Shown here piece by piece: positions 1 through 11,888 of a DNA stretch of 46,663 nt. Numbering within the stretch: position 1 is the stretch's first letter; the number at the start of each line of letters is the position of its first letter. A program made the position numbers and the translations under genes. The notes below the pieces were generated by a model. The model searched no databases. It saw only the letters and a program-made list of their open reading frames with translations, and was not told the DNA's origin. Source of the stretch: a virus (taxonomy: Duplodnaviria > Heunggongvirae > Uroviricota > Caudoviricetes); the IMG/VR virus record IMGVR_UViG_3300012347_000217, positions 1 to 46,663 of that record; one strand, given 5' to 3'.

Positions 1-168
1 CGGTATCGTAGCAGTACCGCTGGTGCTACAGGACGAAGTGGGTTCGAACCCCACAGCCAGGTTCGTTAGTGTGTTTACATATGGTAAAGCGTTCAACCGG
101 TTGCAAACGGAGTCCTGGTGGACAAGTCATCGTAGGTGCTAAAGGGGTTCGATTCCCTGACGCGGATG

Positions 169-294
169 CCATATCAAAGTACGCTAGTATGCTATAGCGA
201 ATCGGGTCGCTCCTGTGGAAGTTATGGCGTATCACTGCCCTGGTTGGGCAAAGCCGGCGACTGCGGTTCAATTCCGTAGCGTACTTTGATATGG
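169..294 (+). ncRNA. tRNA-like RNA closed by a perfect 18-bp stem (CCATAT...ATATGG family)
   Basis: CCATATCAAAGTACGCTA (169-186) is the exact reverse complement of 277-294. T-arm TGCGG-TTCAATT-CCGTA abuts the 3' strand. No canonical anticodon arm. Confidence 0.7.
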
Positions 295-342
295 TAAACA
301 GGAGTAATTAACCTGTCCATATTCGGAAGTCATGACTCCGAA

Positions 343-444
343 GAACTCGTAGTGATGGAAATGGGTAGACATTCCTCCGTTATAGGAGGCGGGAGTTCCG
401 CAAGGCCCCCATGCAGGTTCGATCCCTGCCTACAATGAGTTCCA
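343..444 (+). pseudogene. Degenerate type II (Leu-like) tRNA or tRNA-like RNA
   Basis: Leu-type D loop GGAAATGGGTAGACA, arm CCTCC-GTTATA-GGAGG with a 6-nt loop, long variable arm, T-arm GCAGG-TTCGATC-CCTGC, bulged acceptor GAACTCGTAG/CTAC-AAT-GAGTTC, ends in CCA. Confidence 0.55.
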
Positions 445-560
445 TATAGAAGTATTCTTGGCATAAGTCAAAGCGGGAGAAGAGACCCTAGTGGATGCAT
501 ACGCAAAGGTTTCAGAGCTTGACTCCTCCTAGGCCTGCATTTGAGAGTGCTTCTATATGG
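442..560 (+). ncRNA. Structured RNA closed by a 17-bp stem (CCATAT...ATATGG family)
   Basis: CCATATAGAAGTATTCT (442-458) pairs with AGAGTGCTTCTATATGG (544-560) with 2 G.U pairs. Internal complementarities AGTCAA/TTGACT, CCTAG/CTAGG, ATGCA/TGCAT. Confidence 0.6.
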
Positions 561-633
561 TGCTATAGTTCAGTGGTAGAACACCTCCTTCATACGGAGA
601 CTGTCGGCGGTTCAAGTCCGTCTAGCACTACCA
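559..633 (+). tRNA. trnM: tRNA-Met or Ile2 (CAT)
   Basis: Cloverleaf GGTGCTA/TAGCACT, anticodon loop TTCATAC, T loop TTCAAGT, encoded CCA. Confidence 0.85.
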
Positions 634-797
634 AATATTTTACCGTCCCACTTTAACTCATCCTTGACAAATGGTTTGAGGTCCTTGGTGGGAAATGACA
701 GAGCAAAAGTTTGAACGCACGAATAACTTGCACTTTTAGGAAATGGTCCTTGTGCAACTGCGTATAGAGGAACAACTGCTTCGTCTTCGGTTATCAT
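612..797 (-). CDS. Possible 61-aa antisense protein (MITEDEAVVP...)
   Basis: Internal ATG of the 612..884 ORF. It fills the spacer between two tRNAs and is preceded on the minus strand by CATAAATA. Confidence 0.3.
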   Translation of the reverse strand: MITEDEAVVPLYAVAQGPFPKSASYSCVQTFALSFPTKDLKPFVKDELKWDGKIFGSARRT

Positions 798-808
798 GCA
801 GTATTTAT

Positions 809-883
809 GCCCTAGTAGCTCAGGGGTAGAGCGGCGTCTTGATAAGGCGTAGGTCCGTGGTTCGAAACCACGCTGGGGTACCA
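809..883 (+). tRNA. trnI: tRNA-Ile (GAT)
   Basis: GCCCTAG/CTGGGGT acceptor, loop TTGATAA, TTCGAAA, CCA. Confidence 0.92.
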
Positions 884-887
884 CTTA

Positions 888-895
888 CTAAATAG
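888..895 (+). promoter_or_regulatory. T4-type late-promoter-like ACTAAATA
   Basis: Variant of the T4 late consensus TATAAATA just before the ATG at 900. The same motif precedes the genes at 4843 and 25861. Confidence 0.45.
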
Positions 896-899
896 TTTT

Positions 900-1484
900 A
901 TGGATTCCACATTCGAATATTTTTTTCAAGCAGAGCCATCTAAATCAATGCCCATGTACGCATTGTACGATGTTATGGACAAGCATTTTATGCTGCAATC
1001 AACTGACTACACAGTGTTGCACAAATTAATGATTGCCATGCGCTCTAAGACAAATTTAGAAATGGCAGTGCTTCCTTATAAAGCCGACATGTCTAATGCA
1101 AACATTGAAAAATTCTATATTAAGAATCTACATCCTAAATGGATGGGCGATCTGGTAAACTTTTATAAACAGCCTGATCCCGAAAAGCATCTTGCTAAAT
1201 GGGCAATTGTAGACCCTGAGATGCAAATTGAGTTGACTCAAACACACTTTGATTCATACAAAACTGATTTACAGAAACAATTGTTCTTTTTTTACTATTG
1301 TTTGAGCTTTTTAAAGAAGCACCCATCCGACTTGGTAGAAAAACTAATCACTAACAGTATCTGGTATAGTAAGAACTATAGCGAGGTCGTTGATTGTCTA
1401 CTAAACTCAGTAGCGATACACTCGCAGCAGGATAGGGCAATGTTCCACAAGTTCCTTACACAGACTGGACTATTTTATGAATAA
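900..1484 (+). CDS. Hypothetical protein, coupled to the downstream AsnB-like gene
   Basis: 194-aa ORF; ATGA overlap region with 1477. Confidence 0.75.
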   Translation: MDSTFEYFFQAEPSKSMPMYALYDVMDKHFMLQSTDYTVLHKLMIAMRSKTNLEMAVLPYKADMSNANIEKFYIKNLHPKWMGDLVNFYKQPDPEKHLAKWAIVDPEMQIELTQTHFDSYKTDLQKQLFFFYYCLSFLKKHPSDLVEKLITNSIWYSKNYSEVVDCLLNSVAIHSQQDRAMFHKFLTQTGLFYE

Positions 1485-2679
1485 AATGTTGTTCGTTGAT
1501 CATGTGTTATTAGGAGTAGCTGATACTCAGCTTTATCGTAACGAAATTTACAAAGACTACATGTCCTTGTATCGAAGATTTCCTCCCCCTCCTGGAACCG
1601 AGTTTATGGTCCCGAGGAATATGCCATTGGGGATCAAGAATCCCTGGGGAATAACCGAAAGCAATTTTAAACTTCCTGAATATCGTCAAGTGTCATTTAA
1701 TGATGCAGCTGATTCATTTGGGCAGTCTATTGTTGCGGAAATTGATCAGGGCAAGCAGGTATATATCTGCTGGTCTGGTGGAATTGATAGTACTTGTGCC
1801 GCAGTAAGTGTGCTTAAATTCTTACAGGACAGGCACACAGATCAAGTTACAATAGTAATGTCTGATCGCAGTATACAGGAAAATCCTCAGTTCTATGCAC
1901 AGCATCTGCAGAAATTTAACAGACTAGAATTTAGTCCTTATATGTTTGCAGACATAGATATCAAGAACGCACTGGTGCTTGATGGCGAAGGTGGCGACCA
2001 AATGTTTGGTTCGAGCCTGGCTAATTTTGTGTTCTCGGCGCACCCGGATAAAATCCATGTTCCGTGGCGAACTCAGGTAAATTTTATTACCAAGTTGCTA
2101 CGCAAGCCCTGGGACACTACACAGACATGGAATACATTTTATAACATGGTAGTGGACAGCATTGATTCGTCTGCTCCAGTTGAGACCCTGCAAGACTTTT
2201 TCTGGTGGTTGAACTTTAATTTCAAATTTGATGCAGTAATGACTAGAACGTTACTGTATTACGGAGAAGCAGTACCTGACTGTGATTTTGGGCATTTTGC
2301 TCAGCACTCAAGTCGGCGACTATTTGCAGATAAATTGATGCAGCAGTGGGCTATGTCGGCAGACTCTAACGAAAAGACTCAAGGCGGCAAAAATATCAAA
2401 TTGCCAGCAAAAAAGTATATCTACGAGTTTGATAAAAATGAATACTACTACCGGGAAAAACGCAAAGAGTTAAGTACTCCGATGTTTAATCGCAAATACT
2501 TTGGACTTGACGCAGACTACCAGAGATATAGTCTTGACGACAGGGCTACTCGGCAGAAACTGCGAGAATTATTTTATCCCAATGCAACAGGAAAAATTCC
2601 CTTTGTTGAGGATATAAGTATTCCACACACTGAGCTTATTGCAAATTTTTGGAAAGCGGTCCCGAACACAAAGATGTAA
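1477..2679 (+). CDS. Asparagine-synthase-like PP-loop (adenine nucleotide alpha hydrolase) protein without a glutaminase domain
   Basis: CWSGGIDST PP-loop and LDGEGGDQMFG (compare AsnB SGEGADELFG). Confidence 0.75.
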   Translation: MNKMLFVDHVLLGVADTQLYRNEIYKDYMSLYRRFPPPPGTEFMVPRNMPLGIKNPWGITESNFKLPEYRQVSFNDAADSFGQSIVAEIDQGKQVYICWSGGIDSTCAAVSVLKFLQDRHTDQVTIVMSDRSIQENPQFYAQHLQKFNRLEFSPYMFADIDIKNALVLDGEGGDQMFGSSLANFVFSAHPDKIHVPWRTQVNFITKLLRKPWDTTQTWNTFYNMVVDSIDSSAPVETLQDFFWWLNFNFKFDAVMTRTLLYYGEAVPDCDFGHFAQHSSRRLFADKLMQQWAMSADSNEKTQGGKNIKLPAKKYIYEFDKNEYYYREKRKELSTPMFNRKYFGLDADYQRYSLDDRATRQKLRELFYPNATGKIPFVEDISIPHTELIANFWKAVPNTKM

Positions 2680-2682
2680 TAG

Positions 2683-3216
2683 TTAACCAATTACATCTTT
2701 AAATAGTTCGACTGTTTTGGCCATTGTTATTCTCTTGCCGGATTCTTGCATTAATACAATACTCAAACACCACCGCGGGGTTAGAGGGTTTATGATGTTA
2801 TGAGGTACGCCAACTTGAACTATACTTGGAAACTTAACAGATTGCCGGTGAACTTCGGTAACTTCGGAGTGGTTAAATCCAACATAGCGTGTGCCAATTG
2901 TTGAAGCCGCTGCGGTTTTTACAACACCGGGATTGGCAGAGTACCAACACATGCAGCTTTGGTCGCCGCCCCATATAAAGTTAAGTTTGGTATAGTTGCC
3001 CCCGGCATTGTCAATGTGGATGGGAATTACGCCGCCTGGGCTGGTGTAAAAAAGCTCAGCCAGACCAATTTTTACACCATGCTGCATAAGGAATTGAACT
3101 AACTCAGGATGTAGGTCGCCTAGCGGAATGCGTTGGTGCCATATAGTTTTGTAGGTATTAACATCCTTTATCAGTGGTGTTAACTTTACGTTTAAATCTA
3201 CACAATAATCATTCAT
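2683..3216 (-). CDS. Cupin/Fe(II)-oxygenase-like hypothetical protein
   Basis: IPIHID...VGVPHNI HxD...H pattern in a beta-rich 177-aa ORF. Confidence 0.6.
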   Translation of the reverse strand: MNDYCVDLNVKLTPLIKDVNTYKTIWHQRIPLGDLHPELVQFLMQHGVKIGLAELFYTSPGGVIPIHIDNAGGNYTKLNFIWGGDQSCMCWYSANPGVVKTAAASTIGTRYVGFNHSEVTEVHRQSVKFPSIVQVGVPHNIINPLTPRWCLSIVLMQESGKRITMAKTVELFKDVIG

Positions 3217-3223
3217 AAAGTAG

Positions 3224-3252
3224 TTGACACATAAAGAAATATGCCATACAAT
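3224..3252 (+). promoter_or_regulatory. sigma70 promoter P1 of the tRNA array
   Basis: TTGACA(3224)-17 nt-TACAAT(3247). Confidence 0.85.
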
Positions 3253-3292
3253 AGATACTTAGTTAGAAATTAACTAGGAGCTATAAAAGCAG

Positions 3293-3321
3293 TTGACACA
3301 TAAAGAAATCATTGCTATAAT
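3293..3321 (+). promoter_or_regulatory. sigma70 promoter P2 of the tRNA array
   Basis: TTGACA(3293)-17 nt-TATAAT(3316), perfect consensus. Shares AGTTGACACATAAAGAAAT with P1. Confidence 0.9.
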
Positions 3322-3347
3322 AGCTACATGTTAAGAAATTAACAAAC

Positions 3348-3358
3348 GTTCTTTAAAA
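3348..3358 (+). promoter_or_regulatory. rrn-type boxA antitermination-like element
   Basis: GTTCTTTAAAA after promoter P2 and a small hairpin (TGTTAAGAAATTAACA). Confidence 0.6.
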
Positions 3359-3394
3359 ATTTGTTTTGAATCAAAATAAATTTCTAAATAACTG

Positions 3395-3423
3395 TTGACA
3401 GCAAATGAAATGTTTGCTACAAT
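3395..3423 (+). promoter_or_regulatory. sigma70 promoter P3 of the tRNA array
   Basis: TTGACA(3395)-17 nt-TACAAT(3418) with an AT-rich upstream tract. Confidence 0.85.
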
Positions 3424-3457
3424 AGAAGCTTAGTTAGACATTGTGCTAACTGACAAA

Positions 3458-3468
3458 GTTCTTTAAAA
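3458..3468 (+). promoter_or_regulatory. rrn-type boxA antitermination-like element
   Basis: Second GTTCTTTAAAA, after P3 and hairpin TTAGTTAG...CTAACTGA. Confidence 0.6.
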
Positions 3469-3505
3469 CTGATAACGTATAAGAAGTTCTTATACACATA
3501 CACAC

Positions 3506-3594
3506 AAATGCTTAGGCCAGGCAGATGTAGCGGATTACAGCCCGATAGCTTTCGGGTAGGCAGGTTCAATTCCTGTGAGTGCGTTTAGATATGG
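3506..3594 (+). ncRNA. tRNA-like leader RNA (T-arm, ends in ATATGG)
   Basis: T-arm GCAGG-TTCAATT-CCTGT, hairpin CCCGA/TCGGG, acceptor-like AAATGC/GCGTTT. Confidence 0.45.
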
Positions 3595-3601
3595 TTATTA
3601 T

Positions 3602-3678
3602 GGGTTTGTAGTTTAGCGGCTAAAACATCACGCTTTTAACGTGTAAGACCGTGAGTTCGAATCTCACCAGACCCACCA
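3602..3678 (+). tRNA. trnK: tRNA-Lys (TTT)
   Basis: GGGTTTG/CAGACCC, loop CTTTTAA, TTCGAAT, CCA. Confidence 0.92.
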
Positions 3679-3684
3679 AGTTTT

Positions 3685-3742
3685 AGAATCCATTCAGCAA
3701 TAAAAAAATACTTCGTCTATAGTAAAAAAGCGGATTCTGTTG
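3685..3742 (+). ncRNA. CAGCAA-scaffold RNA copy 1
   Basis: AGAATCC/GGATTCT stem, ATTCAGCAA, A-rich linkers around a small hairpin, tail GTTG. Confidence 0.7.
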
Positions 3743-3749
3743 TTATTAT

Positions 3750-3826
3750 GCCCCCTTACTCCAATTGGTAGAGAGAGCGGTCTTAGAAGCCGTAAAGTCT
3801 CAGTTCGAATCTGAGAGAGGGCACCA
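3750..3826 (+). tRNA. trnL: tRNA-Leu (TAG), short variable loop
   Basis: GCGGT-CTTAGAA-GCCGT, 5-nt variable region, TTCGAAT, A73, CCA. Confidence 0.85.
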
Positions 3827-3875
3827 AATCTCGCCTTGATTGATGGCGTACAATGAGATAAATTATCAATCGACT

Positions 3876-3950
3876 GGTCTTAAAGTGTTCATGGACGCAC
3901 GTAGCACTGTCACTGCTAAAGAAGGGGATCGTTACCCCTTAAGACCGCCA
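3876..3950 (+). tRNA. trnD: tRNA-Asp (GTC)
   Basis: GGTCTTA/TAAGACC, loop CTGTCAC, G73, atypical T loop ATCGTTA. Confidence 0.85.
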
Positions 3951-3957
3951 AGATTTT

Positions 3958-4031
3958 ATCCGGTTAGCTCAAAGGTAGAGCACTGGCTTGATAAGCCATA
4001 GACAGAGGATCGTTACCTCTACCGGATACCA
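3958..4031 (+). tRNA. trnI: tRNA-Ile (GAT), second copy
   Basis: ATCCGGT/ACCGGAT, loop TTGATAA, T loop ATCGTTA, CCA. Confidence 0.85.
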
Positions 4032-4035
4032 GTTT

Positions 4036-4136
4036 AGAATAGGTTCAGCAAAAATTTACACATGCGAATGGTTCGCAATTTTCATTCAAAGAAAACTTTG
4101 TGGGTTCAATTCCCACTGTAAAAAAACTATTCTGCT
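4036..4136 (+). ncRNA. CAGCAA-scaffold RNA copy 2, enclosing a full cloverleaf with anticodon TCA
   Basis: AGAATAG/CTATTCT stem. Inside: TTTACA/TGTAAA, TGCG-AATGGTT-CGCA, TTTTC-ATTCAAA-GAAAA, GTGGG-TTCAATT-CCCAC. No CCA. Confidence 0.75.
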
Positions 4137-4143
4137 ATATAAT

Positions 4144-4229
4144 GGAGATGCCGCCGTAATGGTATGGCAAGGGACTGTAAATCCCCCGCTCTTCGGAGCT
4201 AATAGGTTCGATCCCTATCATCTCCACCA
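4144..4229 (+). tRNA. trnY: tRNA-Tyr (GTA)
   Basis: GGAGATG/CATCTCC, loop CTGTAAA, long variable arm, CCA. Confidence 0.92.
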
Positions 4230-4233
4230 ATTT

Positions 4234-4308
4234 GGGCTGTTAGTGATAATGGTAGCACAGGGCGTTTGCAACGCTTTAGCAGGAGTTCGATTCTCCTACG
4301 GTCCACCA
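4234..4308 (+). tRNA. trnA: tRNA-Ala (TGC)
   Basis: G3.U70 pair, loop TTTGCAA, CCA. Confidence 0.92.
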
Positions 4309-4315
4309 AGTTTTT

Positions 4316-4389
4316 GCCCCATTAGTTAAATGGTAGAACATCGGTTTTGTAATCCGAGGATAGCAGTTCGATTCTGTTATGGGGCACCA
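4316..4389 (+). tRNA. trnT: tRNA-Thr (TGT)
   Basis: GCCCCAT/ATGGGGC, loop TTTGTAA, CCA. Confidence 0.92.
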
Positions 4390-4491
4390 AGTTTAGTAGA
4401 ATGTATGGGTTGACCACAACGCCACGTGCCAAGGTAAGACATTCGAAGTGTAAGTAGCAGGTTTGGTCATGCTTACACACTAATTAGTTAT

Positions 4492-4565
4492 GCGGGATTA
4501 GTTTAATGGTAAAACTACAGATTTCCAATCTGTTGTTGAGAGTTCGATTCTCTCATCCCGCTCCA
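4492..4565 (+). tRNA. trnG: tRNA-Gly (TCC)
   Basis: GCGGGAT/ATCCCGC, loop TTTCCAA, U73, CCA. Confidence 0.92.
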
Positions 4566-4570
4566 GTTAT

Positions 4571-4637
4571 GCGTTGAAGTATGAACTGCACGAAGTACCC
4601 CTTCGTGATGCCTGTAGAAATCAGGCTCGACGCTCCA
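4571..4637 (+). ncRNA. D-armless tRNA-like RNA with a Gly-type acceptor end
   Basis: GCGTTGA/TCGACGC-T-CCA, 11-nt D replacement loop, CACGAAG/CTTCGTG arm, GCCTG-TAGAAAT-CAGGC. Confidence 0.65.
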
Positions 4638-4642
4638 GTTAT

Positions 4643-4716
4643 CTCGGATTAGTTTAGTGGTAAAACTCGTGGTTTGGGACCATGGGTCGGAAGTTCGATT
4701 CTTCCATCCGAGACCA
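4643..4716 (+). tRNA. trnP: tRNA-Pro (TGG)
   Basis: CTCGGAT/ATCCGAG, loop TTTGGGA, CCA. Confidence 0.92.
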
Positions 4717-4721
4717 GTTTT

Positions 4722-4787
4722 AGAATCCATTCAGCAAAACAAAACATTTCAAAACTTTTATCTTTGAAAAGAAAAACGGATTCTGCT
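4722..4787 (+). ncRNA. CAGCAA-scaffold RNA copy 3 with a Lys(TTT)-like anticodon loop
   Basis: AGAATCC/GGATTCT; inner TTTCAAA-a-CTTTTAT-c-TTTGAAA; tail GCT. Confidence 0.7.
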
Positions 4788-4842
4788 ATTTTGAATATTC
4801 ATTTTTACTAAATAAAAGTATAACAACTTCAGTTAATCGAAA

Positions 4843-5178
4843 ATGAATAAATGCAATTATCACCTATGTAACAATGAGACTAAAACAAAGTTCTGTTGTG
4901 TTAAGTGTAAAAATAAATTTCACGTTATCAAACGTAGAAATGTCTTAAAAGAAGAAGCCATCAAATATAAAGGTGGTAAATGCGAAGTCTGTGGATATGA
5001 TAAATGTGGTTCTGCTTTAGAATTTCATCATAAAGATCCTACAGAAAAAGATTTCGGTATCTCACAGGACGGTAATACTAGACCTTGGGAAACAGTGAAA
5101 TCTGAATTAGATAAATGTATCATGTTGTGTGCAAATTGTCATAGAGAAGAACATGAGAGATTGAGAAATATTCCCTAA
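4843..5178 (+). CDS. HNH endonuclease (zinc-binding)
   Basis: CEVCGY...LEFHH...LCANCHREEH; the stop codon overlaps the 5' end of tRNA-Asn. Confidence 0.85.
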   Translation: MNKCNYHLCNNETKTKFCCVKCKNKFHVIKRRNVLKEEAIKYKGGKCEVCGYDKCGSALEFHHKDPTEKDFGISQDGNTRPWETVKSELDKCIMLCANCHREEHERLRNIP

Positions 5179-5246
5179 TAGCTCAGTGGTAGAGCAAAGC
5201 ACTGTTAATGCTTGGGTCGGAGGTTCGAGCCCTCCTTGGGGAGCCA
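5172..5246 (+). tRNA. trnN: tRNA-Asn (GTT)
   Basis: TCCCTAA/TTGGGGA, loop CTGTTAA, G73, CCA. Confidence 0.92.
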
Positions 5247-5251
5247 ATTAT

Positions 5252-5329
5252 TGTGGTAGAGCAAGCATGGTGTAGGCGCTTCGCTGTTAACGAAGAATGA
5301 GCTAGGTTCGATCCCTAGTACCACAGCCA
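5252..5329 (+). tRNA. trnN: tRNA-Asn (GTT), divergent second copy
   Basis: TGTGGTA/TACCACA, loop CTGTTAA, G73, CCA. Confidence 0.88.
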
Positions 5330-5333
5330 GTTA

Positions 5334-5394
5334 AGAATCGGTTCAGCAAACATATAGCTAACTTTGGATGTCTAGCGACAAAAACGATTCTGTT
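5334..5394 (+). ncRNA. CAGCAA-scaffold RNA copy 4
   Basis: AGAATCG/CGATTCT; inner imperfect hairpin around CTTTGGA (Gln TTG-like loop); tail GTT. Confidence 0.68.
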
Positions 5395-5401
5395 ATATAA
5401 T

Positions 5402-5477
5402 GGTTCAGTAGCATAGCGACTAATGCAACACCTTCATACGGTGTCTATCGTGAGTTTGAGTCTCACCTGAACTACCA
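5402..5477 (+). tRNA. trnM: tRNA-Met or Ile2 (CAT)
   Basis: GGTTCAG/CTGAACT, loop TTCATAC, T loop TTTGAGT, CCA. Confidence 0.82.
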
Positions 5478-5483
5478 ATTAAT

Positions 5484-5560
5484 CCGTCTGTAGCACAACT
5501 GAATAATGTCCTGGTCTACGAAGCCATGGGGTGGGGGTTTGAATCCCTCCGGACGGACCA
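5484..5560 (+). tRNA. trnR: tRNA-Arg (ACG)
   Basis: CCGTCTG/CGGACGG, loop CTACGAA, T loop TTTGAAT, CCA. Confidence 0.85.
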
Positions 5561-5577
5561 ACTAATAATCACTTACT

Positions 5578-6195
5578 ATGAATTACATAAAAGAAATATT
5601 TGATCCAGTAAATGAGCAACATGCAAAAGACATTTGTTTATCTCCTGATAGAAATGATCCTAAGAAGTTTCAAAAAGAAACTGATTTTCTGATTAAGTTT
5701 TTACATGACAATGGTTATGCTACACCAGAAAAAGATATTGCTGATTTTGGTTGTGGTGTTGGACGTGTAAGTAAGCAACTGATTGAACAGTTAAAATGTA
5801 AGGTTGTTGGGTTTGATATCTCTAAGAAGATGATACATACAGCAATCAATTATATCGAGAATGATGATTTCGACTTTTACCATTATGGTGTGAGTGTCGA
5901 AAACAAATGCAAAATTAAATTTGATACAGTAATCGCTTCTTTGGTTCTCCAGCATAGCGAACACCCTATATACGATATCAATTTTATCGACAGTATTATG
6001 AAACCTAATGGTGTATTAGTATTAGTCAATGAGAAGGAGCGTTATGTTCCTACTGAGATTGTAGATGGTGCCGTAAAATGGCATGATGATGGTATTGTTA
6101 TAGTAGATGAAGTGTCGAAGGTATTTGACCTAGTCGGTGAATACAACTACTATACAAGACCTGATAAATGTTTAACAGTTTGGAGAAAAAGATGA
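5578..6195 (+). CDS. Class I SAM-dependent methyltransferase
   Basis: IADFGCGVGR motif I, VGFDIS, FDTVIASLVLQH. Confidence 0.88.
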   Translation: MNYIKEIFDPVNEQHAKDICLSPDRNDPKKFQKETDFLIKFLHDNGYATPEKDIADFGCGVGRVSKQLIEQLKCKVVGFDISKKMIHTAINYIENDDFDFYHYGVSVENKCKIKFDTVIASLVLQHSEHPIYDINFIDSIMKPNGVLVLVNEKERYVPTEIVDGAVKWHDDGIVIVDEVSKVFDLVGEYNYYTRPDKCLTVWRKR

Positions 6196-6359
6196 GTGAT
6201 GGTGGAAAAGGTTCTAGTCCTCGACCATTTAGTATTTCACAGCAGGAGTATGACAATCGCTGGGACAATATTTTTAGTCGTGACTTGAAAGATGAGAAAG
6301 AAGATAAAGTGACACGTAACAATGAGGAAACTCAAGAGGTGTTAAATCAGAATAAATGA
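6192..6359 (+). CDS. Small hypothetical phage protein (MSDGGKGSSPRP...)
   Basis: Internal ATG of the 6168 ORF, ATGA-coupled to the methyltransferase stop. Confidence 0.65.
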   Translation: MSDGGKGSSPRPFSISQQEYDNRWDNIFSRDLKDEKEDKVTRNNEETQEVLNQNK

Positions 6360-6434
6360 GTCGGTAGTTCCAATTGGCAGAACGGCGGATTCCAAATCCG
6401 TTAGTTGGGGGTTCGAGTCCCTCCCGGCTCGCCA
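6358..6434 (+). tRNA. trnW: tRNA-Trp (CCA)
   Basis: GAGTCGG/CCGGCTC, loop TTCCAAA, G73, CCA. Confidence 0.92.
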
Positions 6435-6454
6435 TAATTAGAAAGGTGATTGAT

Positions 6455-6943
6455 ATGAGTAAATTCGACATTCAAGAAGTTAAGCAGTTCATTTTGGATC
6501 AAGGTCCAGATACACGTGTTTATCTTGGTGCTGACTCTGAGCGAATCAGAGTAAACGGTGTATGGTATGCCGACTATGCACTTGCTGTCGTTGTTCATAT
6601 CGACGGCCGCCACGGTTGTAAAATCTTCGGATATGTTCACCGTGAAATTGATTATGACCACAAGAAAAGTAAACCTGCTATGCGTCTGATGACAGAAGTA
6701 TACAAGGTTTCAGAATTGTTCCACGAAATGCAAGATGTATTGGAAGACCGTCATGTTGAAGTCCACCTAGACTTGAACAAAAACGAAATTCATGGTTCTT
6801 CATGTGTGGTACAGCAAGCGATTGGCTATATAAAGGGCACATGTAACATGACCCCAATGGTCAAGCCAAATGCACCGGCTGCTTCTTTCTGTGCAGACAG
6901 ATTGAAACGTATTCTTGCAGAACAAGAATTGTTGGCAGCGTAA
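6455..6943 (+). CDS. RNase H-like YkuK/DUF458-family protein
   Basis: Start at MSKFDIQ after AAGGTG; YLGADS, RLMTEV, EVHLD, AASFCADR acidic motifs. The ORF-track start at 6374 lies inside tRNA-Trp. Confidence 0.75.
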   Translation: MSKFDIQEVKQFILDQGPDTRVYLGADSERIRVNGVWYADYALAVVVHIDGRHGCKIFGYVHREIDYDHKKSKPAMRLMTEVYKVSELFHEMQDVLEDRHVEVHLDLNKNEIHGSSCVVQQAIGYIKGTCNMTPMVKPNAPAASFCADRLKRILAEQELLAA

Positions 6944-7013
6944 AGAGTTTGTTCGAACTAGCAGGAGTGCTTCCGTTCTCGTCCTGCGAATATAAAAAAT
7001 ATAACGGAGCCAT

Positions 7014-7087
7014 GCGGGTATGATGTAAAGGTAGCCTGTGACCTTGCCAAGGTTAGTGTGGGAGTTCGATTCTCCCTACCCGCTCCA
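7014..7087 (+). tRNA. trnG: tRNA-Gly (GCC)
   Basis: GCGGGTA/TACCCGC, loop TTGCCAA, U73, CCA. Confidence 0.92.
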
Positions 7088-7107
7088 CATTTTATGAAAG
7101 TTTTAGT

Positions 7108-7350
7108 ATGACGTATATTCCATTGAACGGCAACGTAATCGTTGAACGTGTTGCACCAGTTAAAGTATCTTCTGGTGGTATCATCTTGCAATCATCCGTT
7201 GAACCTGATAAAGCAAAAGTTATTGCTACTGCATCAGATGAAGTTAAGATTGATGACTTGCTATTGATTAATTGGAATAAGTGTGCTAAGATTGGTGAAG
7301 ACACCTTCCGTATTCATATTACGGACTGCATTGCTGTCTTCACAGAATAA
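7108..7350 (+). CDS. groES: GroES-like co-chaperonin
   Basis: PLNGNVIVER...SSGGIILQ...AKVIA pattern, 80 aa. Confidence 0.85.
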   Translation: MTYIPLNGNVIVERVAPVKVSSGGIILQSSVEPDKAKVIATASDEVKIDDLLLINWNKCAKIGEDTFRIHITDCIAVFTE

Positions 7351-7351
7351 T

Positions 7352-7426
7352 GCCTTGTTAACTCAGCGGTAGAGTGTCTCCCTTACAAGGAGAAGGTCGG
7401 CGGTTCGATCCCGTCACAAGGTACCA
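7352..7426 (+). tRNA. trnV: tRNA-Val (TAC)
   Basis: GCCTTGT/ACAAGGT, loop CTTACAA, CCA. Confidence 0.92.
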
Positions 7427-7430
7427 ACAT

Positions 7431-7504
7431 GCTCTTATAGTACAGTGACAGTACATACCCTTGGTACGGGTAGGACCTGAGTTTGATTCTCGGTAAGAGC
7501 ACCA
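7431..7504 (+). tRNA. trnT: tRNA-Thr (GGT)
   Basis: GCTCTTA/TAAGAGC, loop TTGGTAC, T loop TTTGATT, CCA. Confidence 0.88.
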
Positions 7505-7516
7505 AGATTTCTTAGT

Positions 7517-7589
7517 GTTGGCCATCGCCAAGTGGTAAGGCCGAAGGTTGTGATTCTTCTATGCGTGGGTTCGATCCCCACTGGTCAAC
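7517..7589 (+). tRNA. trnH: tRNA-His (GTG), CCA not encoded
   Basis: G-1:C73 extended acceptor GTTGGCCA/TGGTCAAC, loop TTGTGAT; followed by CCT. Confidence 0.85.
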
Positions 7590-7605
7590 CCTAAGAAATT
7601 TTAAT

Positions 7606-7681
7606 GCCTTTGTAGCTCAGGTGGTAGAGCAGTAGACTGAAAATCTATGTGTCGGCGGTTCGACTCCGTCCAAAGGCACCA
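7606..7681 (+). tRNA. trnF: tRNA-Phe (GAA)
   Basis: GCCTTTG/CAAAGGC, loop CTGAAAA, CCA. Confidence 0.93.
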
Positions 7682-7805
7682 TATATAAACTCTCTGAGTG
7701 ACTACACTGGAGTACATCAAGTAAGAGCAAAGTCGACCACGCTCCGAACGTTGCCAGGAAGTAGGGTCACCGTGGATTCAAGTACCGCAGAGAGTTTTTA
7801 TATGG
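7679..7805 (+). ncRNA. Structured RNA closed by an 18-position stem (CCATAT...ATATGG family)
   Basis: 7679-7696 pairs with 7788-7805 with one mismatch; internal GTGAC/GTCAC and CTGG/CCAG helices; degenerate T-arm-like segment. Confidence 0.65.
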
Positions 7806-7878
7806 GCAGTAAACTTTGACGATGAAGTCCGGCCTCTTAAGCCGAGAGAAGACAGTTTGAATCTGTCACCGCCCACCA
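7804..7878 (+). tRNA. trnK: tRNA-Lys (CTT)
   Basis: GGGCAGT/ACCGCCC, loop CTCTTAA, T loop TTTGAAT, CCA. Confidence 0.82.
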
Positions 7879-7883
7879 ATTTT

Positions 7884-8011
7884 GGGAACGTGATGTAATG
7901 GTAGCATAGCATAGCAAAAAGTCAATTCTGTAAAGAATTGTTTCCGCAACACCTATAGCTCTAACTCTGTAAAAGTTCTTGTGCGTGGTTCGAATCCCGC
8001 CGTTCCCACCA
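7884..8011 (+). ncRNA. tRNA-Tyr(GTA)-like RNA with a 53-nt extra arm between the D and anticodon arms
   Basis: GGGAACG/CGTTCCC-A-CCA, D arm, insert 7910-7962, AACT-CTGTAAA-AGTT, T loop TTCGAAT. Confidence 0.65.
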
Positions 8012-8016
8012 ATTTT

Positions 8017-8112
8017 AGGATGACTACAGCAAACAATTTTTAAGGTTCGATTCCTTATTTTGCCACCAAAACTCGGCAGAGTCGCTCATCGGGAGCACCA
8101 AATCATCCTGCT
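8017..8112 (+). ncRNA. CAGCAA-scaffold RNA copy 5: circularly permuted tRNA mimic (YrlA Y-RNA-like)
   Basis: AGGATGA/TCATCCT stem, then T-arm, loop-closed acceptor TTTTGCC-ACCAAAACTC-GGCAGAG, then D-arm GCTC-ATCGG-GAGC. Confidence 0.75.
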
Positions 8113-8119
8113 ATTCAAT

Positions 8120-8196
8120 GCCCTCGTAGCCCAATTGGTAGAGGCAGCAGTTTCAAACACTGTACAGTGTGAGTTCGAATCTCACCGTGGGCACCA
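8120..8196 (+). tRNA. trnL: tRNA-Leu (CAA), short variable loop
   Basis: GCAGT-TTCAAAC-ACTGT, 5-nt variable region, A73, CCA. Confidence 0.82.
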
Positions 8197-8208
8197 TCGG
8201 AGATATAA

Positions 8209-8373
8209 ATGAAATCACCAGTACAACGTGGAGTTCCAGGTAATGTAAAAATGCGTGGAAGAAAAACAAAACTAATGTCTTGCTTATGTTGCGAAATGAT
8301 TAATTTCAAATGGTCTGAACGTTGGAAAGAAGCAAAGAAAGAAATTTCTGGTAACAATACAAAAGAGTATTGA
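8209..8373 (+). CDS. 54-aa basic hypothetical protein (MKSPVQRGVPG...)
   Basis: GGAG ribosome-binding site at about 8199, open frame to TGA at 8371; shorter than any ORF in the track. Confidence 0.55.
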   Translation: MKSPVQRGVPGNVKMRGRKTKLMSCLCCEMINFKWSERWKEAKKEISGNNTKEY

Positions 8374-8398
8374 CATATTACACTTAATTTGATACAAT
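8370..8398 (+). promoter_or_regulatory. sigma70 promoter
   Basis: TTGACA-17 nt-TACAAT, upstream of scaffold copy 6, the oxygenase, scaffold copy 7 and the TROVE-like gene. Confidence 0.85.
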
Positions 8399-8426
8399 TG
8401 CGTCATCGTGATTGTTAAAGAGTTTT

Positions 8427-8612
8427 AGAATAGGTTCAGCAAAACATGTTTAACGGGTAGCAATACCCGCTACGAATCGCTGATATCTTTTTCCAATAGC
8501 TGGAGCCTGTATGGGCTTTGAAGGTTATTCGAATGCCTAACGGCAAGGATATCAGATAAGTGAGTTTCGATTTCTCACTGACAGAAACAAAAAGAAGAAA
8601 ACTATTCTGCTG
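8427..8612 (+). ncRNA. CAGCAA-scaffold RNA copy 6 with a large multi-hairpin cargo
   Basis: AGAATAG/CTATTCT; CGGGTA-GCAA-TACCCG, CTGATATC/GATATCAG multibranch, T-arm-like GTGAG/CTCAC; tail GCTG. Confidence 0.7.
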
Positions 8613-8637
8613 ATTGTAGGTTAACTTGAGGAGTTTA

Positions 8638-9228
8638 ATGAATATCATCACTAACAAGACACCATTCGAATATATTGTAATTGATGATATGTATTCGGAA
8701 GATGAACTCAAATTAATTTGGCGTGAAATTGATTTCTTGACACCTAAGATGAAAACACCTGCTCAAACAGGTTCAGCTATTGATGCATCAAACAACAGTT
8801 ACAAAAAGAATGCTAATGGATTATTTTTGGATGCTGTATATTCGGATCGTAGTGTGTCAGATTTACTGACATTGAACCGAAAATTGTTTGATGAAGAAAT
8901 TATCAATGAAGGTAAGAAATTACATCCAATTTTTGGATTCATGGATTTTTGTAACAGTGATACGACATTGTTAAATCATTATACGAATGGTGGCTATTAT
9001 GCACCACATAGAGATGTAGCAGTGTTATCTTCGGTAACATTCTTTATTGATGATGTGGGATTTACTGGAGGCCAATTCGAATTTACTGATTATAATGTTC
9101 AGATTGAACAGAAGAATAATAGAACTGTACTTTTTCCAAGTACCGTGAGACACTCTGTAACACAAGTTCAGGTCCCACATAATGGAAAAGGTCGCTATTC
9201 GATGGCACAATTTTTGATGATGAAATAA
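8638..9228 (+). CDS. 2OG-Fe(II) oxygenase (prolyl-hydroxylase-like)
   Basis: HRD...H...RYS motifs; GAGGAG ribosome-binding site before ATG 8638. Confidence 0.85.
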   Translation: MNIITNKTPFEYIVIDDMYSEDELKLIWREIDFLTPKMKTPAQTGSAIDASNNSYKKNANGLFLDAVYSDRSVSDLLTLNRKLFDEEIINEGKKLHPIFGFMDFCNSDTTLLNHYTNGGYYAPHRDVAVLSSVTFFIDDVGFTGGQFEFTDYNVQIEQKNNRTVLFPSTVRHSVTQVQVPHNGKGRYSMAQFLMMK

Positions 9229-9255
9229 AAGAATATAACTATTCTGTGGATTTTT

Positions 9256-9319
9256 AGGTTAAGTTCAGCAAATAAAAAGCATTCAACTTGTAATTGAAAA
9301 CGCAAAAATTAACCTGTTG
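9256..9319 (+). ncRNA. CAGCAA-scaffold RNA copy 7 with a Thr(TGT) anticodon stem-loop, in the leader of the TROVE-like gene
   Basis: AGGTTAA/TTAACCT; inner TTCAA-CTTGTAA-TTGAA; tail GTTG; AAGGAG follows at 9326. Confidence 0.72.
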
Positions 9320-9337
9320 TTTTAAAAGGAGTATATT

Positions 9338-10768
9338 ATGACAACATTTGTAGAAGCCGTGAAGAACCAAGAAGCCCGTACCACTAACGGTATGAAGGCA
9401 CGTAAGTCGACCGCTAACGCTGTGGTTGATTTGTATTACAATGCGGGTGCATCCCGTGGTAAAAACATTCTGCCAGCATTTACTGCTGCTTATGTTGAAA
9501 ACAAAGAGTTGGCACTCCGTGTTGCCGCATGGCTACGTGACGCACGTGGTGGTGCTGGTGAACGCAAGTTGTTCCGTGATATTCTAGTACACCTAGAAAA
9601 TACCGATCCAGATGCCGCTTTGGCATTGCTGGCAAAAGTACCTGAACTTGGCCGTTGGGACGATATCTTCGTCTTCAAGACCAAGTTTATGAAAGATGCT
9701 GCATACACACTATTGGGTGACGCTCTGCGTGAACGCAATGGTTTGGCAGCTAAGTGGACTCCTCGCCAAGGTCCAGTTGCGGCAGAAATCCGTACATTCT
9801 TCGGAATGTCACCAAAGTTCTACCGTAAGTCTTTGGTCAATATGACCAATGTTGTTGAAACACAAATGTGTGCGAAGGATTGGAACTCAATCAACTTCTC
9901 TCACGTTCCATCTGTTGCAGCAGCACGTTACAAGAAGGCATTTAACCGTAACACAACAGCATACGCAACATATGTTGCAGCACTTGTAAAAGGTGATGTT
10001 GCTGGTGTTAAAGTGAATGCTGGCGCAGTTTACCCATATGATGTATTGAAGGGTCGTATCGGCTCTTACCGTACATCATACGATAAGACTGAAATGGACT
10101 TGATCCAAAAGCAATGGGAAGCACTACCAAACTTCGTTGGTGATGCAAGCATCCTACCATTGGTTGACACCTCTGGTTCTATGACTTGCCCAGCAGGTGG
10201 TTACCAATCCAAGTCAGGCTTGTCCTGCATGGAAGTTGCAGTCTCATTGGGATTGTACTTGGCTGATAAGAACAAGGGTGCGTTCAAGGACACATTCTTG
10301 ACCTTCTCATCTAAGCCTCGTCTGTTGCACTTGAAGGGCAATATCAACGAGAAGATTGCTCAAATGTGTACCGGTGAAGTTGCTAATACCAACCTCAACG
10401 CCGCATTGGATAAGATTCTTGAAGTGGCAGTACAGCACAAAGTAGCTCAAGCAGATATGCCAGCTATGTTGTTGATCCTGTCAGATATGCAATTTGATGG
10501 TGCTGTTGGTGGTCGTGATGACTCTGCAATGGAAATGATTGCACGTAAGTACAATGCAGCGGGTTACACCGTTCCAAAGGTGACTTACTGGAACTTGAAC
10601 GCTGCTTATGGCAACGCTCCAGTGAAGTTTGACACACATGGTACTGCATTGGTGTCTGGGTTCTCGCCAGCCGTGGTTAAGCCATTGCTTGCTGCTGACC
10701 TAGAAGTCTTCACACCAGAATCTGTGATGATGAAAACCATCATGGATGACCGTTACAAAGTCTTGTAA
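9338..10768 (+). CDS. TROVE/DUF2828-like helical domain plus vWA domain (Ro60-like RNA-binding protein candidate)
   Basis: Helical N-terminus with RDARGGAGER and GRWDD; C-terminal vWA MIDAS LVDTSGSM and ILSDMQFD; 476 aa; strong ribosome-binding site. Confidence 0.7.
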   Translation: MTTFVEAVKNQEARTTNGMKARKSTANAVVDLYYNAGASRGKNILPAFTAAYVENKELALRVAAWLRDARGGAGERKLFRDILVHLENTDPDAALALLAKVPELGRWDDIFVFKTKFMKDAAYTLLGDALRERNGLAAKWTPRQGPVAAEIRTFFGMSPKFYRKSLVNMTNVVETQMCAKDWNSINFSHVPSVAAARYKKAFNRNTTAYATYVAALVKGDVAGVKVNAGAVYPYDVLKGRIGSYRTSYDKTEMDLIQKQWEALPNFVGDASILPLVDTSGSMTCPAGGYQSKSGLSCMEVAVSLGLYLADKNKGAFKDTFLTFSSKPRLLHLKGNINEKIAQMCTGEVANTNLNAALDKILEVAVQHKVAQADMPAMLLILSDMQFDGAVGGRDDSAMEMIARKYNAAGYTVPKVTYWNLNAAYGNAPVKFDTHGTALVSGFSPAVVKPLLAADLEVFTPESVMMKTIMDDRYKVL

Positions 10769-10773
10769 CGCCT

Positions 10774-10800
10774 ATGAGGATTCGAAAGAGTCCTCATTTT
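10774..10800 (+). terminator. Intrinsic terminator-like hairpin
   Basis: ATGAGGATTC-GAAA-GAGTCCTCAT-TTT just after the stop codon. Confidence 0.65.
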
Positions 10801-10920
10801 AGAATACATTAATTTGGTGCTAATAAACGAGATAACACCATTTGTGACAAGAAGTTGCTGTCAAAGACGATAAATTCCTTCTCAGGATTTGCAACAGTCG
10901 GATAATGTATTCTAAAATGA
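10794..10920. ncRNA. Structured element closed by an 18-bp perfect inverted repeat
   Basis: TCATTTTAGAATACATTA / TAATGTATTCTAAAATGA enclosing three hairpins. Confidence 0.5.
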
Positions 10921-10922
10921 AT

Positions 10923-11006
10923 GCGGGTATGATGAAATTGGTAGTACATAGGAGACTTAAAATCTCCCGCTTCGGCGTCCCGGTTCGAGTCCGGGTGCCC
11001 GCACCA
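10923..11006 (+). tRNA. trnL: tRNA-Leu (TAA), long variable arm
   Basis: GCGGGTA/TGCCCGC, GGAGA-CTTAAAA-TCTCC, CCA. Confidence 0.92.
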
Positions 11007-11012
11007 GATGAT

Positions 11013-11087
11013 GCCTTGGTAGCTTAATGGTAAAGCAGGGAACTCATAATTCCTTGAGTGGGAGTTCAATTCTCTCCCAAGGCACCA
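11013..11087 (+). tRNA. trnM: tRNA-Met/Ile2 (CAT)
   Basis: GCCTTGG/CCAAGGC, loop CTCATAA, CCA. Confidence 0.9.
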
Positions 11088-11100
11088 TATAAATAATTAT

Positions 11101-11174
11101 TGCGGATTAGTGAAACGGTATCACAAAGGACTCATAATCCTTAATTCCTTGTTCGAATCTTGGGTCCGCAACCA
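11101..11174 (+). tRNA. trnM: tRNA-Met/Ile2 (CAT) with a weak T stem
   Basis: TGCGGAT/GTCCGCA, loop CTCATAA, T stem CCTTG/CTTGG with two U.U mismatches. Confidence 0.75.
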
Positions 11175-11175
11175 A

Positions 11176-11715
11176 TTAAAACCAGAGCCACAGTCCTTGT
11201 GATAGTAGGAATGAACCAATTCCACCAACAACGACAGATGCCCAAAACATTGGCATCGACACGGCTAAGATAGATGCAGACAGCAATACAATACTTAATT
11301 GGAATGCTGTACCAGCAAATGTCAACCACGGAGTATGCTTCTTAGCAGCATCACGGTCAGCTTCAAGTTTGTGAGCCTTGGCCATCAACTCCTTCTTACC
11401 CTCACCCTTTGCAGGATCAGATTCATAGCGGTCAATCTTCGCTTGCAACTGTTCCACACGCTTCTTATCTCCACGCACATACGCATCGTCCTGTTGACCT
11501 TCTGCAATAGATTGTTTGATAGACTTCGCCTGATAGAAGTTCCAAGTATCATTTGCCTTTATGGTATTTGTGAGAATAGATGAACTAAACCCATTACCGA
11601 TATAGGTATTAACGGCAAGCAAAGCAGCAACCACAGTGATGACCCATCCCGCTTTGTCTTTGATTTGTGCTTCTCTTTCGCTTCTACTAAGAGGCTTTTT
11701 AATTTCTTCTGTCAT
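11176..11715 (-). CDS. DUF4337-like membrane protein
   Basis: Two hydrophobic segments flanking a coiled coil; W..YQAKSIK motif. Confidence 0.75.
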   Translation of the reverse strand: MTEEIKKPLSRSEREAQIKDKAGWVITVVAALLAVNTYIGNGFSSSILTNTIKANDTWNFYQAKSIKQSIAEGQQDDAYVRGDKKRVEQLQAKIDRYESDPAKGEGKKELMAKAHKLEADRDAAKKHTPWLTFAGTAFQLSIVLLSASILAVSMPMFWASVVVGGIGSFLLSQGLWLWF

Positions 11716-11738
11716 AATTCACTCCTTTATTTACGTAT

Positions 11739-11888
11739 TTATTTGACGAATACCAGAACTTTCGCTATACCTACGATGACACCAATAATCAGCAACAAAA
11801 TTATTGCACTGAAAGTCATAACTAAACCTGCCGCAAGTATTACACTATATTCTAGTAATTTATCCCATTTCTTTTTTAATGTTGGCAT
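11739..11888 (-). CDS. Small membrane protein (MPTLKKKW...)
   Basis: Internal ATG coupled (TAATG) to the upstream stop; one long hydrophobic segment. Confidence 0.6.
   Translation of the reverse strand: MPTLKKKWDKLLEYSVILAAGLVMTFSAIILLLIIGVIVGIAKVLVFVK

Follow-up and report, generated by a model that had tools for sequence, protein, structure and literature searches.

Small structured RNAs and stem-loops at or beside stable RNA genes have been described in several systems. RNase III stalks are known from the 16S and 23S rRNA flanks in rrn operons and from early-transcript sites of phage T7, and RNAs C and D (species 1 and 2) of phage T4 are small non-tRNA RNAs that lie among tRNA genes and are freed by tRNA processing. 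The PeSL cassettes of T4-type phages, which Arbiol and co-workers are said to have described in 2010, reportedly consist of a promoter and a terminator hairpin, act at the level of DNA and transcription, and are tied to modular shuffling. The genes for Y RNAs normally lie next to that for Ro60 (Chen et al. 2014, PMC4201824; phiLo Ro60, PMC12135203). Here, we describe a family of stem-closed elements in 46,663 nucleotides of DNA (the window) from the IMG/VR virus record IMGVR_UViG_3300012347_000217, forming the first 46.7 kb of the 177,309-bp contig of a large freshwater phage, rated complete. A tRNA cluster fills the first ~11 kb of the window with 24 tRNAs called by ARAGORN, all on the + strand, and several of its junctions carry a hairpin whose 17-bp helix starts on the CCA of one tRNA, ends on the GG of the next and encloses a variable RNA, here called the cargo.

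Structure of the elements and their fit to tRNA ends

The elements of the window, and the genes that adjoin them, are as follows.

1-84, + strand: 3' portion of an element that the contig start truncates; T-arm cargo (38-54), 3' arm 68-84 ending ATATGG
169-294, + strand: element A; 18/18-bp helix 169-186/277-294, tRNA-like cargo with T-arm 262-278 stacked on the helix
442-560, + strand: element B; 17-bp helix 442-458/544-560 with 2 G.U
559-633, + strand: tRNA-Met (ARAGORN)
3500-3594, + strand: element F, chimeric; tRNA-like cargo and family 3' arm 3578-3594, no matching 5' arm
7606-7681, + strand: tRNA-Phe (ARAGORN); its 3' CCA 7679-7681 forms helix positions 1-3 of element C
7679-7805, + strand: element C; stem 7679-7703/7781-7805, core 17/18, U.U at position 8, 93-nt cargo
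7804-7875, + strand: tRNA-Lys(ctt)-like gene (Rfam tRNA match, 32.5 bits); its first two G (7804-7805) also form the final two bases of element C
9338-10768, + strand: Ro60-like protein gene (Pfam DUF2828 and DUF7788), linked only to the sub-type of element D
10794-10920, + strand: element D; 18/18 helix 10794-10811/10903-10920, stem sub-type (C/U)CAUUUU(G)AA

The preliminary description of this DNA had listed the stems of elements A (18/18), B (17 bp, 2 G.U) and C (17/18 core), two further 3' halves and several contacts with tRNA ends, all of which were recovered. The two halves belong to the element cut by the contig ends and to the chimeric copy, respectively. ARAGORN confirms the tRNA-Phe CCA at 7679 and the tRNA-Met GG at 559, and the Rfam match places the tRNA-Lys start at 7804. 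The CCA at 442, which had been assigned to a Leu-like pseudo-tRNA, terminates a tRNA-like module (442-444), and the opposite end of element B (GG 559-560) is the start of tRNA-Met. Element D, which was absent from that list, was found by an inverted-repeat scan as a fourth complete element, 26 nt past the stop of the open reading frame (ORF) 9338-10768 and 2 nt ahead of tRNA-Leu (10923-11006). The fold of element A has a dG of -60 (z -6.9), and element B has an orthologue in L052 that is 84% identical (L numbers denote the other sequences compared). The tRNA-Phe/element C layout recurs in L004, L011, L029 and L037, the orthologue of element C at L013:320-449 is 88% identical with two compensatory stem changes, and in relatives ARAGORN calls a tRNA-Lys(ctt) at the position of 7804-7875, starting on the first G. 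The 11.6-kb tRNA region contains five stems of at least 17 bp, whereas 100 dinucleotide shuffles gave 0.4 on average and never more than 3; one of the five is a 21-bp extension of the tRNA-His acceptor stem. This tRNA-His (7518-7591) lies within a leader/trailer helix spanning 7504-7602, and the same extended-stem layout is seen, with compensated changes, in L014 and L015 at 1061-1160.

Relatives were collected in two samples. A Ro60-anchored sample of 46 IMG/VR loci carrying the neighbouring protein gave 25 further unique elements by structure alone, and the structure-found set comprised 29 elements. For the pattern sample, a degenerate pattern of both arms was searched against IMG/VR; at least 120 stretches matched, and 80 loci were analysed, 79 of them phage tRNA clusters, with 87 elements in the pattern-found set. 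The hairpin family is abundant in lake phages. The same arm pattern matched only eight times in 596 Gb of prokaryote genomes, always on contigs of metagenome-assembled genomes, of mixed taxa, which are probably mis-binned phage DNA; set against the IMG/VR count, this indicates that the helix is specific to phages.

Positions 1-17 are paired in nearly all elements of both sets, position 18 is paired in ~70%, and pairing is random from position 19. The helix is perfect or carries a single A.C or U.U at position 8, and it reaches 18 bp with the discriminator base: the base preceding the CCA is A in 65 of 87 elements and the base following the GG is U in 65 of 87, giving the eighteenth pair. The arms are 26% GC in a genome of 41.7% GC. 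Bases A3, U4, U6, A9, A10, A13, A15 and U17 are conserved, together with two oddities, an A.C at position 8 in 42/87 elements, with G-C or A-U in the others, and a U.G at position 16 (60/87). Conservation that extends to the A.C and the U.G suggests a specific reader of the helix.

Compensated double changes were found at position 1 (C-G/U-A), at positions 5 and 7 (A-U/U-A), and at positions 8 and 11. On the tRNA-sense strand, G.U outnumbers A.C by 81 to 1 at positions 11, 12, 14 and 16, whereas unrelated stems in the same loci, serving as a control, have 19 G.U and 17 A.C. This strand-specific excess shows that the fold is selected in RNA of the tRNA strand, and it is strongly supported that the elements are RNA structures forming parts of the tRNA transcript and not DNA signals.

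The fit to tRNA ends is equally consistent. Of the tRNA-flanked elements near the window's relatives, all 13 have as their first CCA the 3' CCA of an ARAGORN tRNA, as do 55 of the 92 elements of the wider scan. Bases 1-2 of the following tRNA (Met, His, Lys, Ala and others) often supply the final GG. A family-type helix (CCAUAUUAAAGCAUGC...) is also present in a cultured freshwater cyanophage, the isolate Synechococcus phage BUCT-ZZ01 (ON615601.1; L175:5660-5781), where its end coincides exactly with the 5' end of a permuted tmRNA, which is likewise a substrate of RNase P. Together, the tRNA and tmRNA fits indicate that the 3' arm is always the leader of an RNase P substrate. Elements occupy one to four junctions per cluster and the remaining junctions have spacers of 3-9 nt. 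Presence is polymorphic at orthologous tRNA junctions, where empty sites include CCA-TAT-GG, and the last ten bases of the 3' arm resemble the ordinary spacer (A/G)GUUUU(U)AU of empty junctions. The covariation, the G.U excess and the CCA/GG abutment in ~100 phage contigs thus strongly support that part of the earlier view which takes the elements for structured RNAs tied to neighbouring tRNA ends.

An Infernal search, which had been proposed as a check, was carried out with cmscan on window positions 1-12000, and no Rfam family matched any element at E ≤ 1. A near-identity search of the phage collection with the elements returned tRNA matches only. Literature on DUF2828, on hairpins in phage tRNA arrays and on the role of RNase III in such clusters, which was covered incompletely, yielded no description of such elements.

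Other structures were seen in phage tRNA arrays. Helices of 18-21 bp with other sequences bracket variable RNAs in the arrays of unrelated phages, for example in Ralstonia phage RSP15 (NC_030948.1, an Ackermannviridae isolate), in which an 18/18-bp helix at L186:5892-5997 encloses ~70 nt between tRNA-Thr and tRNA-Ile. A third type of junction insert is a ~48-55 nt hairpin with the core GGCGTA(T/C)AATG(T/A)GA(T/C)AAGTAGTGTG, which looks like a -10 promoter box in a stem; it occurs at tRNA junctions of L002, L003, L004, L006, L034, L059, L065, L087 and L123. The tRNA region of BUCT-ZZ01 is annotated with small hypothetical ORFs only, and it contains a CUA-anticodon tRNA (L175:4627-4702).

Cargo and a possible processing route

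Cargos are 34-135 nt long (median 50) and have a GC content of 50%. They are hypervariable, falling into 92 clusters among 115 unique elements. At the tRNA-Lys(ttt)->tRNA-Met junction, an element is present in 11 of 14 contigs; the family stems there are near-identical and the cargos unrelated. Several types of cargo reappear in phages that are not related, where they occupy different junctions, are closed by different stem types and show compensated hairpin changes. Among ~180 elements only two are bare hairpins, and cargos of 10-29 nt were not seen. Folding is slightly better than that of shuffles (mean z -0.33, p 0.001). No motif shared by the cargos was found beyond a weak enrichment of AAAGA/GAGATA. 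The T-arm that the preliminary description had placed beside the stem, by analogy with the tRNA-like domain of tmRNA, is present in 169-294, 3500-3594 and 1-84; the analogy applies to a minority of cargos (5 of 29) and does not extend to the rest of the family. Given the base composition of the cargos, their minimum size and their recurrence, we argue that the payload is probably more than filler.

We propose, with a probability of about 0.45, that the helix is a processing stalk in a tRNA precursor and that host tRNA-maturation enzymes release from it a stem-capped small RNA. In a polycistronic transcript, a tRNA's trailer, which starts with that tRNA's CCA, would pair with the leader of the next RNase P substrate, and the resulting 17-bp A/U-rich helix would close off a small GC-rich cargo RNA. 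RNase P, cutting ahead of the downstream G+1, would produce the 3' end of the unit. A 5' cut would also be required, because the upstream tRNA would otherwise retain a stable 3' hairpin; it may fall just past the CCA or be a staggered, RNase III-type cut within the helix, and either route would free both tRNAs and leave the stem-capped RNA. No RNase III or double-stranded RNA-binding domain (dsRBD) was found in five complete genomes of these phages, and a host RNase III-type cut is therefore the simplest candidate. The helix would then act as a conserved handle for processing and for protection from exonucleases, and the cargo as an interchangeable payload, with functions that are probably diverse and with some cargos acting as tRNA mimics. 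The route presumes transcription as a single precursor, the enzymes named, a stable product and some function for the cargo.

Several points weigh against this route. With the CCA and the -1/+1 site both sequestered in the helix, RNase P and trimming of the 3' end should be impeded, which makes the extra cut necessary, and this cut has only been assumed. A helix of 17-18 bp is short for a classical RNase III site and stands at the lower limit for an RNase III stalk of about two turns. The sequence conservation of the helix exceeds what RNase III needs, which hints at a specific binding partner, and hypervariable cargo with no shared motif also fits unconstrained sequence. Contigs of four freshwater metatranscriptomes overlap parts of the relatives' region; such contigs cannot show RNA ends, strand or level, and hence do not bear on the expression or stability of the elements, which the preliminary description had taken for stable RNAs or for switches that couple processing of the flanking tRNAs.

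A competing explanation holds that the elements serve processing or insulation only, as a host RNase III-type stalk or a folding insulator, with cargos that are functionless filler and partly decayed tRNA genes. Filler would account for cargos that vary even at one orthologous junction and share no common motif, for the two cargo-less hairpins and for T-arm remnants in 5 of 29 cargos, but not for a GC content well above that of the genome, a floor of ~34 nt with almost no short loops, or cargo types that are kept, with compensated changes, across distant phages and stem types. The RSP15-type helices point to geometry and not sequence as the requirement, and a host enzyme would serve phages that lack RNase III and dsRBD proteins; most tRNA junctions, however, use spacers of 3-9 nt, which makes a stalk unnecessary for processing. 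We consider this explanation unlikely.

A bolder reading, which we regard as speculative and rather improbable, is that the 17-bp helix is a universal handle for a host or phage factor and displays a fast-exchanging library of small structured RNAs produced from the tRNA operon at tRNA-like levels. These might act as decoys or inhibitors against RNA-binding proteins or RNA-targeting defences of the host, one branch of the family serving the Ro60-like protein, and would make up an RNA-cassette counter-defence array; on this reading the conserved arms would allow cargos to be swapped by recombination.

The Ro60-like neighbour and possible rearrangement of the cluster

The AlphaFold2 (AF2) model of ORF 9338-10768 has a predicted local distance difference test score (pLDDT) of 92 and a predicted template modelling score (pTM) of 0.91. 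Its full-length Foldseek matches are all Ro60/TROVE proteins (Xenopus, human, Deinococcus Rsr and Thermus phage phiLo); the top 12 matches have E values of 3e-8 to 9e-7 and template modelling (TM) scores of 0.42-0.61, and all other matches cover the von Willebrand factor A (vWA) domain alone. Sequence profiles link the ORF to Ro60 only marginally (E 0.08). The model has the HEAT-repeat ring closed by a vWA domain with a MIDAS (metal ion-dependent adhesion site) motif that characterizes Ro60/TROVE proteins, and D277, S279 and S281 are invariant. As judged from this model, DUF2828/DUF7788 proteins adopt the Ro60 fold, a TROVE ring plus vWA. The family forms 5,791 clusters at 50% identity. Its members in isolate phages, which span 711 records (Escherichia, Mycobacterium, Salmonella, Vibrio, Listeria, Staphylococcus and others), are mostly annotated as hypothetical or, as in RefSeq, 'RNA-binding protein'.

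A family element begins 21-33 nt past the stop of the Ro60-like gene in 26 of 42 related loci, and the CAUUUUGAA stem sub-type, (C/U)CAUUUUGAA, was found only at this position, in 16 of 16 cases, among them 3 of 3 from a gene-blind pattern scan. The hairpins were initially read as Y-like because Y RNAs are encoded beside Ro60. As a description of the whole family, partnership with Ro60 was rejected: CCAUAU elements are present in six phage records that are rated 100% complete and have no DUF2828/DUF7788 gene, and three positive controls were detected.

If the elements were Y-RNA-like partners of the phage protein, the helix would be the binding site of the DUF2828 ring protein and the cargos would be effector modules, as in bacterial YrlA. 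The exclusively Ro60/TROVE full-length matches, the position of elements directly after the gene and the usual proximity of Y RNAs to Ro60 (PMC4201824, PMC12135203) fit such a partnership, and Ro60-adjacent placement on the same strand is seen for element D and its sub-type, but not in the six complete genomes that lack the gene. The only YrlA (RF02553) match by cmscan, at 24 bits, covers 7538-7661 and falls on two tRNAs and no element. The helix is also without the bulged Ro-binding motif, the tRNA-like T and D arms of YrlA are not general (5 of 29 elements have a T-arm), such a neighbour is often missing beside distant homologues of the gene, and a different family of RNAs with a CAGCAA motif accompanies the Ro60-like gene as well. 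The CGAA motif that is stressed for the phiLo Yrl RNAs is present in some cargos. We therefore hold a general Y-RNA-like role to be decidedly improbable.

Around distant DUF2828 genes, this helix was not found among other stem-closed or CAGCAA-bearing RNAs; the CAGCAA motif was seen beside such genes at L047 2740-3005, L048 4760-5100 and L184 4340-4640. In RSP15, a promoter-bearing 15-bp hairpin lies downstream of the DUF2828 gene. The window itself holds another repeated element, in which a short stem of AGAAUNN is combined with a UUCAGCAA motif, a cargo that varies and a closing AUUCUG, at 3680-3749, 4033-4143, 4717-4800, 5330-5401, 8012-8119, 8421-8625 and 9237-9330.

The half-elements at the contig ends and at 3500-3594 are related to each other. 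The genome end carries tRNA-Glu, followed by a 5' arm, CCATATCTAAACGCAT, at 177225 and a tRNA-like cargo; if the circular join is exact, this arm partners the 3' arm 68-84. In relatives, the cargo of 1-84 is part of complete orthologous elements, one of 103 nt at L001:1465-1567 and one in L052 (reverse strand). The cargo at genome positions 177234-177309 is repeated at 3500-3575 (73/76 identical), with a 55-nt exact run reaching the last base of the contig, and this cargo sits under three different stems, in L177, in L178 and at the genome end. Since the exact run extends to the last base, the contig break is most likely a repeat-induced assembly break. The genome would thus hold one composite element, if the circular join is exact, and one chimeric element at 3500-3594. 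Either a shared cargo was the site of true recombination, or these copies were produced in assembly by a k=55 repeat; because assemblers commonly use a k-mer of 55 nt, assembly may account for the contig break and possibly for the chimeras. The 3.5-kb segment 1-3575, with cargo direct repeats at both ends, contains two elements, tRNA-Met, tRNA-Ile and three ORFs, and three strong sigma-70-like promoters lie within it at ~3225-3440.

Re-assortment of cargo and stem types across phages and positions, presence/absence polymorphism with empty CCA-TAT-GG sites, and the bounding of segment 1-3575 by 73/76-identical repeats that leave one composite and one chimeric element could suggest that the inverted repeats are recombination or mobility sites (compare PeSL and hairpin-forming att sites) which shuffle cargo and tRNA genes as DNA, the RNA fold being incidental, but this is very improbable given the strand-specific 81:1 G.U excess at four positions, arms that co-vary and are not both held to a fixed consensus, an exact fit to tRNA 3' and 5' ends that is a feature of RNA processing, no target-site duplication at filled versus empty tRNA junctions, no linked recombinase found, and copies within a genome that are not near-identical. 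The 92 cargo types among 115 elements, the co-varying arms and the wobble bias also set the family apart from miniature inverted-repeat transposable element (MITE)-like or terminal-inverted-repeat elements.

Further features of the cluster concern tRNAs and putative RNA enzymes. The first tRNA past the promoters (3602-3678, ARAGORN) has the anticodon UUA and is an ochre suppressor. A tRNA-like gene at 7884-8011 has normal acceptor, D and T arms and a ~53-nt insert that replaces the normal anticodon arm; its tmRNA match is weak (12.7 bits). The genes at 1477-2679, 5578-6195, 6455-6943 and 8638-9228 look like RNA-modification or processing enzymes, and include an S-adenosylmethionine (SAM) methyltransferase, an RNase H-like PF04308 protein and a 2-oxoglutarate (2OG)-Fe(II) oxygenase. 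A 400-aa ORF of the cluster has no Pfam match and carries an SGGxDS PP-loop-like motif read by eye.

Comparison with described systems

Phage tRNA clusters are usually read as lists of tRNAs, and those described here contain a second abundant class of RNA with a precise and conserved architecture, in hundreds of uncultured freshwater phages (the scan counted at least 120 stretches) and in one cultured cyanophage or more. Should the cargos have functions, they would constitute a large unexplored pool of phage small RNAs made by way of host tRNA processing; if the helix alone matters, phages would be seen to arrange tRNA-precursor maturation in a new manner. In either case the elements merit annotation and account for many 'empty' gaps in phage tRNA arrays.

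The genomic setting is that of T4 RNAs C and D, to which the preliminary description had likened the elements. The likeness extends to small non-tRNA RNAs among tRNA genes, to a T-arm in rnaC and, if the proposed route is correct, to release by tRNA processing, but T4 rnaC and rnaD have no such long closing helix and no sequence similarity to the family. They were rejected as relatives, their folds (L174:2909-3047 and 3054-3172) being without a long terminal helix. The elements also resemble the PeSL, which are short repeated stem-loop cassettes in plastic regions of T4-like genomes; unlike PeSL, they have no promoter, are placed on tRNA ends and show pairing specific to the RNA strand.

Y RNAs (YrlA, RF02553; phiLo Yrl1/Yrl2) share with the elements a conserved stem formed by the 5' and 3' ends below a variable upper part. 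Some cargos also mimic tRNA and one sub-type stands directly beside a gene for a predicted Ro60-fold protein. Unlike Y RNAs, the elements have no Rfam match and no bulged Ro-binding helix, most of their cargos are not tRNA-like, and the family is found also in complete phage genomes that have no Ro60-like gene.

As in RNase III stalks, a long helix is formed by the flanks within a precursor that, for the elements as for rRNA, would be polycistronic and carry stable RNAs; compensatory changes maintain the pairing, and the cut would fall to a host enzyme. Unlike these stalks, the elements have an almost perfect helix of 17-18 bp with strongly conserved sequence, a CCA start and a G1G2 end, and in place of a single fixed product they enclose a hypervariable RNA of 34-135 nt, whose release by cleavage is predicted.

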